From: a virus
Virus record (IMG/VR): IMGVR_UViG_3300034105_003151
Span: 87,301 to 151,300 of that record
Length of the DNA: 64,000 nucleotides
Strand: one strand, 5' to 3'
Under the pieces are notes generated by a model. That model did no database searches, was not told where the DNA came from, and saw only the letters and a program-made list of their open reading frames with translations. A program made the translations under genes and the position numbers. This document shows positions 2,885 through 40,107 of this stretch, in pieces; position 1 is the first letter of the stretch; each line of letters opens with the position of its first letter.

Positions 2885-5877
2885 GCTTGAAACCCTCCAT
2901 CGGTAATCGTCCATCCGTAGTTTACTAGTCGCTGTCTAGCACCGGAGCTAGCGGCGGTATATTTAGCGGTGCCAAAGTTTACGTTTATTCCTGTGGCCCA
3001 GGGCTTTATTGGATTTCCTGTGGAAGTAGTGGCCCATGAATTCAATAATAAGTCATAGTTGCCACTTCCAATATTAGTATTTATCATGAAATTATTAAAA
3101 TTGGTACAATTACATAGATTCCAACCAGTTAACGATACTTGTAGACTACTACAGTTTGTGAACATATTGCTGACTGTTGTTATTCCTGTAACATTCCAAT
3201 TGTTCAAGCCGTTTCCTATAAATGATGCGGCACCGAAAAACATATTAGAACAGACATTATTTCCTTGAAAAGTCCAGTTTGAAAAATCACCAGAAGTCAT
3301 AAGATTTCCACCAAACATATTGATACAATCTGCACCATTTGGTATAGTCCATCCAGTAATCCCGACCTTCAACGAGCCGTTAGTAAACATAGAAGCAAAA
3401 GTCACACTTTTACTAATGTTCCAATTGCTTAGTCCTGAGCCTGCAAAACTAGTACAACCACCAAACATATTAAACAACGTATTTTTGGTAGTATTCCAAT
3501 TGCTTGCATCAAAATTTAGATTAGCGTTGTTAGTAAATATACTATTCATATTACTTATTCCGCTAGTATTCCAAGATTCCAATCCAACTCCTCTAAAATT
3601 TGTACATCCATTAAACATATTGGTACAGTTGATATTATTCCCATTAAAGATCCAGTTTGAAAAATTACCAGAGTTTATGTTAGATGCCCCCTGAAACATA
3701 CTAGTGAGATTAGCTCCGCTTGCTATAGTCCAGCCACTAATACCAACTGTTGACGAATTAGTATTATTCAAAAACATATTGCTAAAGTTTGTGCATTTGC
3801 TTACATTCCAGTTGCTTAATCCACTTTTTGCAAAATTATTAGCTGTTTGAAAAGCATTTGCCATTGTAGTAACATTAGCAACATTCCATCCACTCAAATT
3901 GTTATTAAAATTAGTGTTGCCCAAAAACATATTAGTCATGTTGCTGATACCACTAGTATTCCAATAGTCCAATCCAATTCCTCGGAAGTTTGTACATCCA
4001 TTAAACATACTAGTGCAATTGATTCCGCTTCCATTGAAGGTCCAATTTTGAAAATTAGCAGAATTTATAGCAGTAGAACTTTGAAACATACTAGAAAGAT
4101 TTGCATCACTAGCTATAGTCCAACCGCTAATTCCAACAGCTAAAGGATTGACTTGGTTCATAAACATACTGCTAAAATTTATACACTTATTTGGCCTCCA
4201 ATTACTTAATCCACTTCCCGCAAAGGAATTAGCCCCTCGAAACATATTAGCCATATTTGTAACATTGCTAGTATCCCAACCACTAACATTAGTATTAAAA
4301 TTCCCGCATAACAAAAACATACCACTCATATTGGTAACATTGCTAGTATTCCAATTGCTTAAATTTCCAACAATCATTGTTGAGTTTATGTTTTCAAACA
4401 TTCGATTCATATCAACAATTCCGCTGGTATTCCACGAGCTAAGATCAACATTTAAACTATTGAATGCCGCCGGATAATTAAAACCTGCAAACATTCTAGC
4501 AGTACTACTATTTGAACCAAAAGTCCATCCTGATAAGGAAATAAATTTACTTGCATATGTATCTCCAAACATTCCTAAGCAATTAGCTCCACTTGCTATA
4601 TTCCAGTTGTCTATTCTTATAGAAGCATTTCCTCCAGCATTTAGACCAACAGATCTTAACATAAAATACTGAAAATTGGTTACTTTGCTGACATTCCAAT
4701 TACTTAAATCAGCAACCATAAAATCACTACCAAACTGAAACATACTGCTCATATTTGTAACACCGCTCACATTCCAATCGTTTAATCCACTCTTCGTTCC
4801 ATTCACACCGTAGAACATATTGTTAAGATTTGTTACCCCTCTTAAATCCCAGCTTGGCATATACAAATTAGTTACGCTAGCGGGGGCACTAGTTCCCGCA
4901 TTAAACATACCATTTGCAAGTGATGTTAATCTCCATCCTGAAAGGGTGCAGTTGTTTAATGTGGCTCCAAGAAACATATTTATAGTATTATTTCCGCTCC
5001 AATTTATAAAAGAACAATCGTTTATATTCGAAAAAGAGAACATCGACGGAGCCCCATTACACGCCCATCCACTAAAAGTAATGTTTGACAGTCTGGTATT
5101 TGTAAATGCATTTCCGAAATTCACCACCAGATTAGTATTCCAATTCCAGTCTCCATTAACGGTAATATTACAATTTTGAAAAGATCTTCTCATATCAATA
5201 ACATTCGAAGTGTCCCATTGGGTAAAATTACTGGTATTAAGATTTGAACATCCATTAAAACAATCGGCCAAATTTCTTCTAAAAGGGGCACCAGCAGCAG
5301 GGTCCGTGGGCTTGATATAAGGAGGAACACTCAAAAGACTAGCTCCGCAAGCAGAGTGATTCACGACGGTGGTGATCGTAACTAAATCCCCATAAGATAA
5401 AATAGCAACCGTTGCCAATCCAGCATGTGGAACATTAGTAATCGTATATCCCATTATTCCTTTAATAACAACTGTGTATATACCATGTTTAGGATAAGTA
5501 TGAGACACAGTAAAGAGACTTATAGAAAGTGCAGTTGGCTCAAATCTTGTTTCATAACTTCCAGGTCTTCTAATCTGAGTTGTTCCCGCCGGAATAAGTC
5601 CTCCACTCGTACCGTCTCCCCAGAATATCTCTATAACAGATCCTTGAAGACTTATTCCCATAGATAAAACAATAGTTGTTGATCCACCCTTAGTAGTATC
5701 TATTACCATCACAAAATCTTTACTACTAAAACCATCATTGTTTCCAATCCTAAAGTCATCAATTTTAGGATAATGATAAGGAGTCGGGACTGTTTGCGGA
5801 ATTCCCAATAAAGGTTTTATTCCAACAAGGTCTGTGGCGACAGAAAAATTTGGAGTACCAAGTATGCCGTTATTCAC
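2881..5877 (-). CDS. BspA/DUF285-type repeat surface protein (putative receptor-binding/adhesin)
   Basis: 998 aa; many ~25-aa repeats of the LSNWNVSKVTNMxxMF type; N-terminal WGDG...HTY PKD-like motif; C-terminal WTITDGG. Confidence 0.85.
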   Translation of the reverse strand: MNNGILGTPNFSVATDLVGIKPLLGIPQTVPTPYHYPKIDDFRIGNNDGFSSKDFVMVIDTTKGGSTTIVLSMGISLQGSVIEIFWGDGTSGGLIPAGTTQIRRPGSYETRFEPTALSISLFTVSHTYPKHGIYTVVIKGIMGYTITNVPHAGLATVAILSYGDLVTITTVVNHSACGASLLSVPPYIKPTDPAAGAPFRRNLADCFNGCSNLNTSNFTQWDTSNVIDMRRSFQNCNITVNGDWNWNTNLVVNFGNAFTNTRLSNITFSGWACNGAPSMFSFSNINDCSFINWSGNNTINMFLGATLNNCTLSGWRLTSLANGMFNAGTSAPASVTNLYMPSWDLRGVTNLNNMFYGVNGTKSGLNDWNVSGVTNMSSMFQFGSDFMVADLSNWNVSKVTNFQYFMLRSVGLNAGGNASIRIDNWNIASGANCLGMFGDTYASKFISLSGWTFGSNSSTARMFAGFNYPAAFNSLNVDLSSWNTSGIVDMNRMFENINSTMIVGNLSNWNTSNVTNMSGMFLLCGNFNTNVSGWDTSNVTNMANMFRGANSFAGSGLSNWRPNKCINFSSMFMNQVNPLAVGISGWTIASDANLSSMFQSSTAINSANFQNWTFNGSGINCTSMFNGCTNFRGIGLDYWNTSGISNMTNMFLGNTNFNNNLSGWNVANVTTMANAFQTANNFAKSGLSNWNVSKCTNFSNMFLNNTNSSTVGISGWTIASGANLTSMFQGASNINSGNFSNWIFNGNNINCTNMFNGCTNFRGVGLESWNTSGISNMNSIFTNNANLNFDASNWNTTKNTLFNMFGGCTSFAGSGLSNWNISKSVTFASMFTNGSLKVGITGWTIPNGADCINMFGGNLMTSGDFSNWTFQGNNVCSNMFFGAASFIGNGLNNWNVTGITTVSNMFTNCSSLQVSLTGWNLCNCTNFNNFMINTNIGSGNYDLLLNSWATTSTGNPIKPWATGINVNFGTAKYTAASSGARQRLVNYGWTITDGGFQA

Positions 5878-31997: not shown

Positions 31998-32099
31998 GGT
32001 GAAGGTAGCGTAGTGGTAGCGTGAGAGAAGTTCCGAACTGCGATAGCAGAGTAGGCAAGCAAATGCTCTTGTGATGGTTCGATTCCATCCCTTCACCCC
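31998..32099 (+). ncRNA. tRNA-like RNA with a His-type acceptor and expanded anticodon arm
   Basis: GGTGAAGG/CCTTCACC acceptor, D arm, GATGG-TTCGATT-CCATC T arm; about 38 nt in place of the anticodon loop; own promoter at 31955. Confidence 0.7.
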
Positions 32100-34988: not shown

Positions 34989-35494
34989 AGATTTTTTCAA
35001 GAAGAGGTGTTGACATGGACGATATAAGAGGTAGAATACAACAGTACGAGCAAGGAAACAGGGACGAGCAAAAAACAAAATCGACCAACTGCCCTTGACA
35101 AGTACACTTTGCGTTGTATAATTTTGGAAATGGTTCTAACACTTTTGAGGAATATAAAAATGGATAAGATCAACGTTTGCGAGTTCAAGGTTAGTGTTTC
35201 GGGTGTTTCTGAGTCTTTCGACTATGCCGATGTGGTTGATACGATCAAGGCCGCTCTTGTCGAGGCACTGCCGGATAGCTACGGTGTTTATGCCCGTGCA
35301 GAGCAGATTCGTGAGATGACGCACCAGGGTTGGCTGAATTGCCGTGCCCGTGTGTACAACGTGACTGCTGTGGAAGCCGGTGACGGTAAGAGTGCCAGCA
35401 AGGTTATCAAGCTGACAGGAAAGAAGGTCAAGGAAGAGGAGACTGCTACGGCTACCGCCTGACTTGACAAACTCGACCCAGCGAGTATAAACAG

Positions 35495-35712
35495 CTTTTA
35501 GGCTGGGTGCGGTGGAACAGTAACCATCCTGTTCCGCGTAAGGATTATCGGCGTGGGATTCGCCGGTCTAGTAGAGTCTAACCAACTGATAAGACAGTGG
35601 TACTCGTTGAAGCGGCTTGCTACTAGTATTATAATGTGGTAAAGTAGTCGCACCACAAAACCGTTAGCCCTCACGGGACGCCGTGGGGGCTTGCGGCATT
35701 AGTAGACCTAAT
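35495..35712 (+). ncRNA. Candidate multi-hairpin ncRNA or structured leader
   Basis: Promoter at 35464; stems GGAACAG/CTGTTCC, CGGCG/CGCCG, CTAGTAG/CTACTAG, TGTGGT/ACCACA, AGCCCTCACGG/CCGTGGGGGCT. Confidence 0.55.
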
Positions 35713-37892: not shown

Positions 37893-38564
37893 TAGGAAGG
37901 CTATGGAGGATCAGTAGTGTACGTTATCGAAAAGTGGAATGGTTTGATGTGTAATGGCTATACACACATTGTTGCTGGTTTTCCAACCCTAGAAGAAGCA
38001 AATATTTGGTGTCATCAACAATCGCCTACTAATGACTATGGCGAGCTTATGGATATGAAGAAAGCTTTCGATATCTATCGTGTTGAAGGCAAAACCGTGA
38101 CCTTAATTCCTTATCCCTGGGAGGATCAGTAATGGATCTTGACAAGTTAGATAGAATTAATATTGAAATGAAGGACGGTACGGAATGGATTGGAGTAAGA
38201 TTTATCAAAGATGTAACCGATGCGAGTGATAGACTCCTCTCATTTGAGCATAACGTCTTTGGGATGGTGGTCGTGAACTGGAGCGATGTTAAGATTGCTT
38301 ACTTCTATGAGGGAGAAGACTAATGAGTCTAGATAAAGGAGTAGAATATGGTAAGGAACGCCGTAGGGACTATCAGGGAAGTAAAAGATTTGATAGGTCA
38401 TGCCGTAATCATGGTTCCTGTGGTTATTGTCGTACTGGTCGTGAACATAGTGGTAAAAAGCGTCAATTGTCTGCTATGGAAAAAATGAACGATTACGAAA
38501 ATAATGCTTAATAACGGGATGGTTTTGGTGTACAATGGGATAATTGTAAGTATGAAGAATAAAT

Positions 38565-38651
38565 GGCTAGGTGGCAGAGCGGATTATTGCATCGGTCTTG
38601 AAAACCGAAGACGCCTCAAAACGTCCGTGGGTTCGAATCCTACCCTAGCCG
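38565..38651 (+). tRNA. tRNA-Ser(TGA)
   Basis: TCGGT-CT TGA AA-ACCGA; long variable arm. Confidence 0.93.
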
Positions 38652-38708
38652 CTTGACACCGGGAGAGTTTTGGTGTATAATGAAGACACGGGTTTTCCCG
38701 GTAAATAT

Positions 38709-38782
38709 AGGTTTGTAGTATAACGGATTTAGTACACTGGTCTACGAAACCAGAGATTTGGGTTCGATTCCCAACAGACCTA
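38709..38782 (+). tRNA. tRNA-Arg(ACG)
   Basis: CTGGT-CT ACG AA-ACCAG. Confidence 0.92.
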
Positions 38783-38793
38783 CTGTTAGTTTT

Positions 38794-38880
38794 GCCCTAT
38801 GTTCCACACGGCTGGCTGTAAACCAGTTGACATTAATTTGTGTGGTGGTTTGTCAAGTAGTTCGATTCTTCCATAGGGTA
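38794..38880 (+). tRNA. Non-canonical tRNA-Tyr(GTA)
   Basis: GCTGG-CT GTA AA-CCAGT; acceptor GCCCTATG/CATAGGGT; no D hairpin; long variable arm. Confidence 0.65.
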
Positions 38881-38885
38881 CTTTT

Positions 38886-38956
38886 GCCTGCATAGTTCAA
38901 CGGTAGAACAGTGGTTTTGTAAACCTCTAATGTCAGTTCGATTCTGACTGTGGGCT
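38886..38956 (+). tRNA. tRNA-Thr(TGT)
   Basis: GGT-TT TGT AA-ACC. Confidence 0.9.
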
Positions 38957-38969
38957 CTGGCTGATTTAT

Positions 38970-39044
38970 CTAGGTATAGCGAAGTCTGGCTATCGCACCT
39001 GCTTTGGGAGCAGGGGATCGGGGGTTCGAATCCCTCTACCTAGA
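38970..39044 (+). tRNA. tRNA-Pro(TGG)
   Basis: CCTGC-TT TGG GA-GCAGG. Confidence 0.93.
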
Positions 39045-39055
39045 CTGTTAGTAAT

Positions 39056-39143
39056 GGAAACGAGTTAGATATTGGCTTTGCTTTACCTCTTTGCTAAAGA
39101 GGGCCGGTTAATCCCGGTGAGGGTTCGATTCCCTCCGTTTCCG
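39056..39143 (+). tRNA. tRNA-Ser(GCT)
   Basis: CCTCT-TT GCT AA-AGAGG; long variable arm; atypical D arm. Confidence 0.85.
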
Positions 39144-39145
39144 CT

Positions 39146-39222
39146 GTGACTATAGCATAGTGGTATTAATGTGATCGGCTGTGAACCGATAGAGACGAGT
39201 TCGAATCTCGTTAGTCACCCCA
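39146..39222 (+). tRNA. tRNA-His(GTG)
   Basis: ATCGG-CT GTG AA-CCGAT; C73 and encoded CCA; T rather than G at -1. Confidence 0.92.
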
Positions 39223-39223
39223 T

Positions 39224-39296
39224 GGGACAGAGGATGATGTGGTCAAATCGCTAGTCTGAAGAACTAGTAATGTCGGTTCGATTCCGACCTGTCCCG
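39224..39296 (+). tRNA. tRNA-Phe(GAA)
   Basis: CTAGT-CT GAA GA-ACTAG. Confidence 0.88.
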
Positions 39297-39335
39297 CTTG
39301 ACAAAGTAAAAACGTACTGTATAATGAAATAACAC

Positions 39336-39408
39336 GCGGGCGTAGCTCAACGGATAGAGCAACAAGTTTCTACCTTGAAGGTTGGGGGTTCGAATCCCTT
39401 CGCCCGTA
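39336..39408 (+). tRNA. tRNA-Arg(TCT)
   Basis: CAAG-TT TCT AC-CTTG; A20. Confidence 0.88.
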
Positions 39409-39434
39409 CTGGTTTGGTGTAGATTAGATTTAAT

Positions 39435-39515
39435 GCGGAAGTGGAGTAATGGCAGCCTCGCGGGTCTTAGAAGCCCGTGCCGAAAGGCGTGTGGGTTCAA
39501 GTCCCACCTTCCGCA
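39435..39515 (+). tRNA. tRNA-Leu(TAG)
   Basis: CGGGT-CT TAG AA-GCCCG; variable arm GCC-GAAA-GGC. Confidence 0.93.
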
Positions 39516-39521
39516 CTTTTT

Positions 39522-39592
39522 CCTCGCTTCTGCTAGTGGTAAGCTGTAACTCTGATAAGGTTATAACGGTAGTTCGATTCTACCAGCGAGGA
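39522..39592 (+). tRNA. tRNA-Ile(GAT)
   Basis: TAACT-CT GAT AA-GGTTA; short atypical D arm. Confidence 0.82.
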
Positions 39593-39593
39593 C

Positions 39594-39664
39594 TCAGGGA
39601 TTGTGTAACGGTAGCACGGAAGGCTTTGAACCTTCTTGTCTGGGTTCGAATCCTAGTCCCTGAA
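39594..39664 (+). tRNA. tRNA-Gln(TTG)
   Basis: GAAGG-CT TTG AA-CCTTC. Confidence 0.92.
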
Positions 39665-39675
39665 CTTTTGATTTT

Positions 39676-39747
39676 GACCCCATAGTATAGCGGTTAGTAC
39701 CACTGGCTTTCAACCAGTAGACCGGAGTTCGACTCTCCGTGGGGCCA
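39676..39747 (+). tRNA. tRNA-Glu(TTC)
   Basis: ACTGG-CT TTC AA-CCAGT. Confidence 0.92.
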
Positions 39748-39748
39748 T

Positions 39749-39822
39749 TGTGGAGTAGAGTAGTCTGGCAACTCGTTAGGCTCATAACCTAAAGATCGGC
39801 GGTTCGAATCCGTCCTCCACCA
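39749..39822 (+). tRNA. tRNA-Met(CAT), initiator-like
   Basis: TTAGG-CT CAT AA-CCTAA; 1:72 mismatch. Confidence 0.88.
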
Positions 39823-39833
39823 CTTGTTAATAT

Positions 39834-39907
39834 AGTGGGATAGAAAAGTTGGCTAATTCAACGGTTTCATAAGCCGTCATGCGTGGGTTCGAATCCCACT
39901 CTCACTA
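39834..39907 (+). tRNA. tRNA-Met/Ile2(CAT)
   Basis: ACGGT-TT CAT AA-GCCGT. Confidence 0.88.
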
Positions 39908-39944
39908 CTTGACATCGACAGGACGGTATGTATAATGGATTTAT

Positions 39945-40017
39945 GGGGCGTTCGTCTAATGGTCCAAGACGCAGGTCTTATTAACCTGCTATGGGAGTTC
40001 GATTCTCTCACGCCCTA
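39945..40017 (+). tRNA. tRNA-Ile(TAT)
   Basis: CAGGT-CT TAT TA-ACCTG. Confidence 0.8.
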
Positions 40018-40030
40018 CTGATGATTACAT

Positions 40031-40103
40031 GGCGACGTAGACCAAAGGTAGAGTCAAGGGATTTAAAATCCCTGTAGCGTGGGTTCGACCCCCACCGTCG
40101 CTA
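40031..40103 (+). tRNA. tRNA-Leu(TAA), short variable loop
   Basis: AGGGA-TT TAA AA-TCCCT. Confidence 0.9.
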
Positions 40104-40107
40104 CTTC

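Follow-up and report, generated by a model that had tools for sequence, protein, structure and literature searches.

A putative phage tRNA-Tyr with a pseudoknotted core in place of the D arm

The tailed phage represented by IMG/VR record IMGVR_UViG_3300034105_003151 carries, inside a dense phage tRNA array, an 87-nucleotide (nt) element at 38794-38880 (+) that is probably a functional tRNA-Tyr gene, the product of which has a non-cloverleaf core and is charged by the enzyme of the host. Coordinates refer to the window, i.e., the 64,000-nt stretch of the record that was analysed (record positions 87,301-151,300), unless a locus with an L or G handle is named. The place of the D stem is taken by a 6-base-pair (bp) helix, here called helix A, between the linker that follows the acceptor stem and the variable loop. 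Helix A and the crossing variable stem both covary among the relatives of the element, and the core is therefore read as a pseudoknot, a structural claim for which the comparative data make a strong case. A D-armless tRNA-Tyr with a possible pseudoknot of this kind had been proposed from the letters of the window alone (the sequence-only reading), and it is supported by 181 homologues, by their covariation and by the absence of a canonical tRNA-Tyr.

Layout of the element and the tRNA set of the phage

The source record (151.3 kb, 36.5% G+C, CheckV 100% complete) is that of a tailed phage and uses the standard code; terminase and portal genes lie within the window. An alternative genetic code was rejected, as table 11 gives normal coding density. 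The element lies in an Arg/Tyr/Thr/Pro/Ser/His/Phe block preceded by a perfect-consensus promoter, 113 nt downstream of that promoter, and its neighbours are close, with tRNA-Arg(ACG) ending 10 nt before it and tRNA-Thr beginning 5 nt after it.

The acceptor strands GCCCUAUG and CAUAGGGU join the 5' and 3' ends with eight of eight positions paired, the terminal pair being G1.U72; the discriminator is unpaired and no CCA is encoded at the 3' end. The 9-nt interval UUCCACACG between the acceptor and anticodon stems allows no local stem, so that a D hairpin is lacking here as it is in all 181 family members. The anticodon loop (38816-38822) holds GUA at 38818-38820, with U33 and a purine at position 37, and the T arm has a 7-nt loop of the UUCRAnY type, though its stem consists of four positions with one U.U. 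The junction purine G17 may pair with U35 in the manner of a 26.44 pair, and we propose that the UGG of loop L3 replaces G18 G19. The sequence-only reading had described a linker of about 9 nt, a TGACA/TGTCA arm with an 18-nt loop, complementarity of CCACAC with GTGTGG and an 8/4 drawing of the acceptor and T stems, all of which were confirmed from the sequence. A perfect 6-mer match between stretches of 9 and 18 nt is expected by chance in about 1.3% of cases (52 placements/4096), thus the complementarity in a single sequence is only suggestive, and it is the covariation in the family that settles it.

The element escapes the usual gene finders. ARAGORN misses it in bacterial, relaxed and mitochondrial modes, the Rfam tRNA model RF00005 (cut-off 29 bits) does not match it at the gathering threshold or at E<=10, and its sole weak Rfam match is tRNA-Sec, with 21.1 bits against a cut-off of 47. 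Likewise, none of 12 other family members reaches any Rfam cut-off, while their neighbouring tRNAs do. ARAGORN finds 26 tRNAs for 19 amino acids in the window, Tyr excepted, and 27 tRNAs (19 amino acids) plus a transfer-messenger RNA (tmRNA) in the whole record, with no other GUA tRNA in the complete 151.3-kb genome. A family profile run with nhmmer scores 62 bits for the element, the single such gene in the genome. The earlier claim that this is the only Tyr gene of the window, the other 19 amino acids having tRNAs of their own, therefore holds, and no canonical tRNA-Tyr lies elsewhere in the complete genome.

Relatives, covariation and distribution

An exact 19-mer from the element has no match in IMG/VR. 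Relatives anchored on the DUF932 protein (71 loci, L001-L071) are at most 68% identical and carry an ordinary cloverleaf class II tRNA-Tyr or none, and the closest proteins (87%) lie on contigs that end before the array. A first pattern consisting only of CCACAC, CUGUAAA and GUGUGG at the correct spacing gave 21 stretches in IMG/VR, 17 of which clearly represent this type of gene, the acceptor, anticodon, variable and T stems being different. Three further IMG/VR scans freed two helix-A pairs at a time, and with members gathered by an nhmmer profile the yield was 85 distinct viral sequences across 114 loci; one metagenome scan and one GTDB scan brought the family to 181 distinct members on phage, metagenome and bacterial contigs. 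The collection of homologues called for by the sequence-only reading was thus obtained. The genes are 83-92 nt long and share one layout, namely an 8-bp acceptor stem, a YU linker, a 6-nt strand, a purine, the CUGUAAA arm, the variable stem, an A/U-rich loop, the 6-nt complement followed by YGG, 1-2 nt, a T stem of four positions and A73. The window element carries every feature of this class of pseudoknotted array-type tRNA-Tyr, which is defined in the present analysis.

Covariation was assessed in an alignment of 83 sequences (A2) with a five-helix pseudoknotted structure, in which 96.9% of the cells are paired; the value falls to 72.3% when columns are shuffled and to 38-54% when the partners are slid. 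For helix A it is 99.8%, each of the six pairs shows compensatory double changes, and C-G, A-U, U-A and G-C are all represented at the central two. The variable stem, which crosses it, is 96.3% paired and covaries as well, and the eighth acceptor pair also covaries (GC 59, AU 15, UG 5, UA 3). Throughout the family the anticodon stem is fully paired (100%) with compensatory changes, and 28 versions of helix A occur among the 181 members, 176 of which form six of six pairs. Given no structure, RNAalifold places helix A stacked on the anticodon stem by way of a G.U between position 17 and the first base of the variable arm. The covariation of CCACAC with GTGTGG, named beforehand as a check, was thus found at every one of the six pairs, and helix A was picked by RNAalifold unprompted. 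Relative to the three-stem frame, the energetic contribution is about -5.9 kcal/mol for helix A and about -4.3 kcal/mol for the variable stem, and family loop lengths are 3-11 nt for L2, 3-6 nt for L3 and 1-2 nt up to the T stem.

Two contigs from other metagenomes (L292 and L348) match the window at about 96% identity, and their gene is identical at 87 of 87 positions; the next relatives (84% identical; L309 and L338) have fully compensated stems. The U.U at the second T-stem pair occurs in L309 and L338 and is common to the nearest subclade, and is therefore a lineage trait and not a sign of decay. That subclade, the nearest to the window (L084, L286, L309, L338, L201, L229), has C1-G72, which is the first pair of archaeal and eukaryal tRNA-Tyr, the bacterial one being G1-C72.

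The class is also found in bacteria. About 50 of the 67 GTDB matches lie in arrays of 30-40 tRNA genes on Planctomycetota chromosomes (e.g., L368, L366, L370, L386, L414, and L416), and one metagenome-assembled genome (MAG) holds three arrays with a pseudoknotted tRNA-Tyr. Locus L368 belongs to Schlesneria sp. T3-172, a complete chromosome record (NZ_CP172346.1) that is not labelled as a MAG and whose array carries a member at L368:4567-4653. The possibility that the pseudoknotted gene is the sole cellular tRNA-Tyr of Planctomycetota was rejected, since all five genomes checked keep a cloverleaf tRNA-Tyr elsewhere on the chromosome. The pseudoknotted class therefore belongs to the accessory arrays, and horizontal spread of such arrays is known (PMC4758250, PMC8421152). 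A paralogue with the loop CUGCAAA (anticodon GCA), U73 and a compensated helix A of its own, CCUCCC/GGGAGG, is present in four planctomycete arrays; ARAGORN calls no cloverleaf tRNA-Cys in these four loci, and the paralogue looks like a Cys version of the scaffold.

A BLAST search with family members found none in plasmids. A stretch of the cultured Nitrincola phage 1M3-16 (L433:1495-1583, KJ534580.1 ~4479-4567), the one partial match in the BLAST search of GenBank phage records described below, was set aside as a degenerate look-alike and not counted. It is unannotated and lies just before a tRNA-Met, with CCUGAC ... GUUAGG UGG and a T arm, but its loop reads CUUCUAA, its anticodon stem contains a mismatch and its acceptor stem is imperfect.

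Function as tRNA-Tyr and competing explanations

The identity set of bacterial tRNA-Tyr comprises GUA, A73, G1-C72 and a long paired variable arm (PMC9976931). GUA is present in the element and in every Tyr-type member, and eight of eight family matches to a pattern that left the anticodon loop free still had it. A73 is found in the element (A38880) and in 174 of the 181 members, and the covarying 5-bp stem UGACA/UGUCA provides the long paired variable arm. The first pair is G1-C72 in 167 of 181 members and G1.U72 in the element. The class also occupies the Tyr slot of its arrays: a cloverleaf tRNA-Tyr occurs in only three of the 34 viral loci that have a member and at least 15 other tRNAs, where each other isotype is found in 25-33, and in one of 24 GTDB arrays selected in the same way. 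In the whole set of viral loci it stands beside a member in 10 of 114. Function as a charged, decoding tRNA-Tyr is likely on these sequence grounds.

If the element functions as tRNA-Tyr, the promoter at 38653 would drive its transcription together with its neighbours, and the usual tRNA-end enzymes would excise it by reading the intact 12-layer acceptor/T minihelix (8 + 4). The 8+4 helix would preserve the 12 layers that RNase P, the CCA enzyme and EF-Tu recognise, and the host would add CCA, after which the host tyrosyl-tRNA synthetase (TyrRS) would charge the molecule. Six nt after the acceptor stem would pair with six in the variable loop to form helix A, replacing the D hairpin. With its elbow end on the acceptor side, helix A would run toward the anticodon in a continuous stack of its own six pairs, the 17.35 pair and the five pairs of the anticodon stem, and these ~12 stacked pairs would approximate the length of the normal stack of D stem, tertiary layers and anticodon stem. 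The variable stem would form across helix A and lie alongside it as an H-type pseudoknot, which the loop lengths would permit, and the UGG after helix A, at the elbow end, could make the T-loop contact that normally involves G18 G19. We thus infer the simultaneous folding of both helices, the elbow contact, processing, charging and decoding.

Several observations weigh against this reading. In the window copy the first pair is G1.U72, and the T stem of just four positions contains a U.U. The pattern scans each kept four pairs of helix A constant out of six, which leaves only the two freed pairs per scan unbiased; these stayed complementary almost without exception, and it is on them that the covariation evidence rests. 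Covariation demonstrates selection on both helices and is not proof that they form simultaneously. When the single sequence is folded by nearest-neighbour energies, the minimum (-26.9 kcal/mol) is another structure that is not of tRNA type, as is common for tRNAs. A BLAST search with four members against 50,697 GenBank phage records found no clear member in a cultured phage. Finally, neither a TyrRS nor a CCA-adding enzyme was found among the genes of the phage, therefore host enzymes must serve the tRNA-Tyr.

An unlikely alternative is that the element is a tRNA-Tyr look-alike acting outside translation, either as a decoy or sponge that would occupy the tRNA-Tyr-cutting nucleases of host defence or as another regulatory RNA. 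PtuAB of Septu and of retron-Eco7 does cut tRNA-Tyr, and phage tRNA-Tyr genes counter it (PMC13096335, PMC11555353). The fold departs strongly from the cloverleaf usually handled by the ribosome, and a cloverleaf tRNA-Tyr does occur beside the member in 10 of 114 viral loci and elsewhere on the chromosome in the five Planctomycetota genomes checked. However, a decoy would have no need of CUGUAAA, A73, G1-C72, a TΨC-type loop and an exact 12-layer helix across 181 versions. The element is, moreover, the only Tyr gene in the phage, as members are in most large, otherwise full arrays, a pattern that fits a decoder, and the Cys-anticodon paralogue has switched its discriminator to U73, the determinant for cysteinyl-tRNA synthetase, as expected if charging matters.

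We give slightly less credence to the idea that the element is a working tRNA-Tyr in which helix A and the variable stem alternate, i.e., a switch between two nested folds. The nested versions are about equally stable (-22.6 and -21.0 kcal/mol), covariation cannot tell helices formed at once from helices each formed at some time, and L3 is short (3-6 nt). Nevertheless, with the anticodon hairpin as loop 1, an L2 of 3-11 nt and an L3 of 3-6 nt should be geometrically compatible with a side-by-side H-type pseudoknot. If the variable stem did not form, the core would contain 20-25 loose nt, and if helix A did not form, nothing would occupy the place of the D stem. Decay into a tRNA-Tyr pseudogene that has lost its D arm, with a 6-nt complementarity by chance (~1%), would account for the rejection by gene finders, G1.U72 and the T-stem U.U, but it is refuted as far as the sequence evidence reaches by the 181 distinct relatives, which share the layout and show compensatory changes in each helix, by the subclade-wide U.U, by the lack of another Tyr gene in the genome and by the identical gene in two diverged relatives, which also answers the earlier concern that this copy might be decaying.

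A broader idea, which we put forward tentatively and consider rather doubtful, is that phages and mobile tRNA arrays have evolved a second, non-cloverleaf route to an elongator tRNA, in which the variable loop is buried in the pseudoknot that takes over from the D stem, the needs of TyrRS, EF-Tu and the ribosome are kept, host nucleases that disable tRNA-Tyr at its variable loop or read the D arm are escaped, and the scaffold has been re-used for Cys. PtuAB of Septu and retron-Eco7 cleaves the variable loop/stem of Escherichia coli tRNA-Tyr (PMC13096335, PMC11555353), and purely as a hypothesis, a variable loop locked in a pseudoknot could be a rationale against nucleases of this type.

Known tRNAs and the surrounding array

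To our knowledge, cytoplasmic and phage tRNAs are universally taken to be cloverleaves with a D hairpin, and the known exceptions are shrunken mitochondrial tRNAs with co-evolved partners. Canonical class II tRNA-Tyr(GUA) (RF00005; e.g., at the related phage loci L002, L005 and L008) resembles the element in CUGUAAA, A73, a usual G1-C72, a paired extra arm, a TΨC-type loop and its location in phage tRNA arrays; it differs in its D hairpin and 7/5 acceptor/T stems, whereas the element has a 6-bp long-range helix, an 8/4 arrangement and an RF00005 score below the cut-off. Mukai et al. (2017, PMC5389517) described (8/4) allo-tRNAs, tRNA-Ser and tRNA-His in bacteria and phages, comprising Ser, His, Cys and Sec species. 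These share with the element the 12-layer 8/4 branch, the long variable arm, the occurrence in phage tRNA clusters and the tRNA-Sec-like detection, but they keep the D hairpin and the cloverleaf, whereas the element has the 8-bp and 4-bp stems without a D arm. The text of that paper contains no pseudoknot, and Tyr appears only in its reference list. In tRNA-Sec (RF01852) the acceptor stem is likewise extended, a 6-bp helix occupies the D-stem position and the extra arm is long, but the branch is of 13 bp (8/5 or 9/4), with a D hairpin and the anticodon UCA instead of GUA, and the element stays at 21.1 bits against 47.

The D-armless mitochondrial tRNA-Ser(AGY) and the truncated metazoan mitochondrial tRNAs (PMC4013460, PMC7609411) also replace the D arm by a short connector. 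They are, however, shrunken, flexible and organellar, with co-evolved factors and an unpaired connector, whereas the element is full-sized, belongs to phages and bacteria, and uses its connector as one strand of a covarying 6-bp helix; it thus falls outside the mitochondrial type. In the plant-virus tRNA-like structures (TLS) of turnip yellow mosaic virus and brome mosaic virus (BMV TLS-Tyr; PMC9976931) a pseudoknot also builds part of the tRNA shape, and the BMV TLS is charged by TyrRS; these, in contrast, are 3' ends of RNA genomes with the pseudoknot in the acceptor arm and no decoding. No published description of this design was found in searches aimed at D-armless or pseudoknotted phage tRNAs, nor in those on tRNA-Tyr-directed defence and on tRNA arrays, and neither phages nor pseudoknots figure in a 2020 review of non-canonical tRNAs. 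The claim of a novel tRNA architecture hence stands against the literature searched. The csRNA 'DNAVirus_1423' (PMC10690425) is a candidate structured RNA that sometimes overlaps ARAGORN Tyr calls and may correspond to the pseudoknotted family. The Anabaena trn-operon paper does not mention Tyr, hence it holds no charging evidence for the class. New in the present work are the members in Planctomycetota arrays, the Cys-anticodon paralogue and the identical gene in two relatives of ~96% identity.

If our interpretation is true, the L shape can be reached by different wiring, which would provide structural biology with a natural tRNA core of a new kind. The apparent rarity or absence of tRNA-Tyr in phage and bacterial tRNA arrays, where it makes up about 2% of the genes (PMC4758250), would also be accounted for, and tRNA finders would need a new model. 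The class would further provide a connection, open to testing, with the defence systems aimed at tRNA-Tyr that have been described since 2023, and possibly an orthogonal scaffold for genetic-code engineering.

Table 1. Coordinates of the element's parts, the adjacent features and the Cys-anticodon paralogues
Feature	Coordinates	Strand	Basis or remark
Sigma-70-type promoter, TTGACA-17-TATAAT	38653..38681	+	12/12 consensus; predicted from the consensus match only
Cloverleaf tRNA-Arg(ACG), upstream neighbour	38709..38783	+	ARAGORN; Rfam 62.4 bits
Acceptor stem 5' strand, 8 nt, GCCCUAUG	38794..38801	+	Sequence; all 8 pairs covary in the family
Linker UUCCACACG, sole sequence separating acceptor and anticodon stems	38802..38810	+	9 nt
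Linker dinucleotide UU	38802..38803	+	Second U in >=90% of family members
Helix A 5' strand CCACAC, in D-stem place	38804..38809	+	Sequence, covariation, RNAalifold
Junction purine G17	38810	+	G in 165, A in 14 of 181 members
Anticodon arm, 5-bp stem GCUGG/CCAGU, 7-nt loop CUGUAAA	38811..38827	+	Sequence
Variable stem 5' strand UGACA	38828..38832	+	Family 96.3% paired, covaries
Loop L2 UUAAUUU, A/U-rich	38833..38839	+	Family: 3-11 nt, 88% A+U
Helix A 3' strand GUGUGG, within 18-nt variable loop	38840..38845	+	Exact complement of CCACAC
Loop L3, UGG then UU	38846..38850	+	Last G invariant, even where patterns left the position free
Variable stem 3' strand UGUCA	38851..38855	+	Crosses helix A, giving the pseudoknot
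T arm, stem GUAG/CUUC (38857-38860/38868-38871), loop UUCGAUU	38857..38871	+	U.U at second pair
Acceptor 3' strand CAUAGGGU (38872-38879) and discriminator A38880	38872..38880	+	Sequence
Cloverleaf tRNA-Thr(UGU), downstream neighbour	38886..38957	+	ARAGORN, Rfam
Cys-anticodon paralogue	L356:1057-1142	-	
Cys-anticodon paralogue	L364:1202-1287	-	
Cys-anticodon paralogue	L374:995-1080	+	
Cys-anticodon paralogue	L391:4788-4873	+	

The array has other unusual features. Three TTGACA/TATAAT promoters with 12/12 consensus matches (38653-38681, 39298-39325, and 39909-39936, all +) lie in its gaps and divide it into blocks. In the ARAGORN drawing, the tRNA-Ser(GCU) at 39056-39144 (+) has a T stem of 4 bp and one additional acceptor pair (8/4-like); it scores only 31.5 bits with Rfam and adjoins tRNA-His, which recalls the phage clusters of (8/4) tRNA-Ser and tRNA-His (Mukai et al. 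2017). In most arrays of L001-L071 ARAGORN calls a tRNA-Ser with the anticodon ACU, and A34 is unusual in a Ser anticodon. Comparison of L292 and L348 with the window at 38500-40400 revealed single tRNA genes swapped for diverged versions between identical neighbouring genes (Arg at 38709 with 21 differences, His at 39146 with 14, Ile(UAU) at 39945 with 30, and Leu at 39435 with 11), which suggests a cassette-like exchange inside the array.

A 99-nt tRNA-like gene at 31999-32097 (+) has normal acceptor, D and T arms and an Rfam tRNA score of 41.3 bits, with ~38 nt in place of the 7-nt anticodon loop, and is missed by ARAGORN. Between two tRNA blocks, a full-length match to the Pistol ribozyme (55.2 bits, cut-off 34.5) lies at 35471-35543 (+). 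Outside the window, the genome encodes a tmRNA with the tag GETQLALAA (G000:C1:8785-9138), a tRNA-Leu(CAA) (G000:C1:11454-11538) and a third odd tRNA-like sequence of 101 nt (G000:C1:15739-15839), which scores 25.6 bits with RF00005, below the cut-off.
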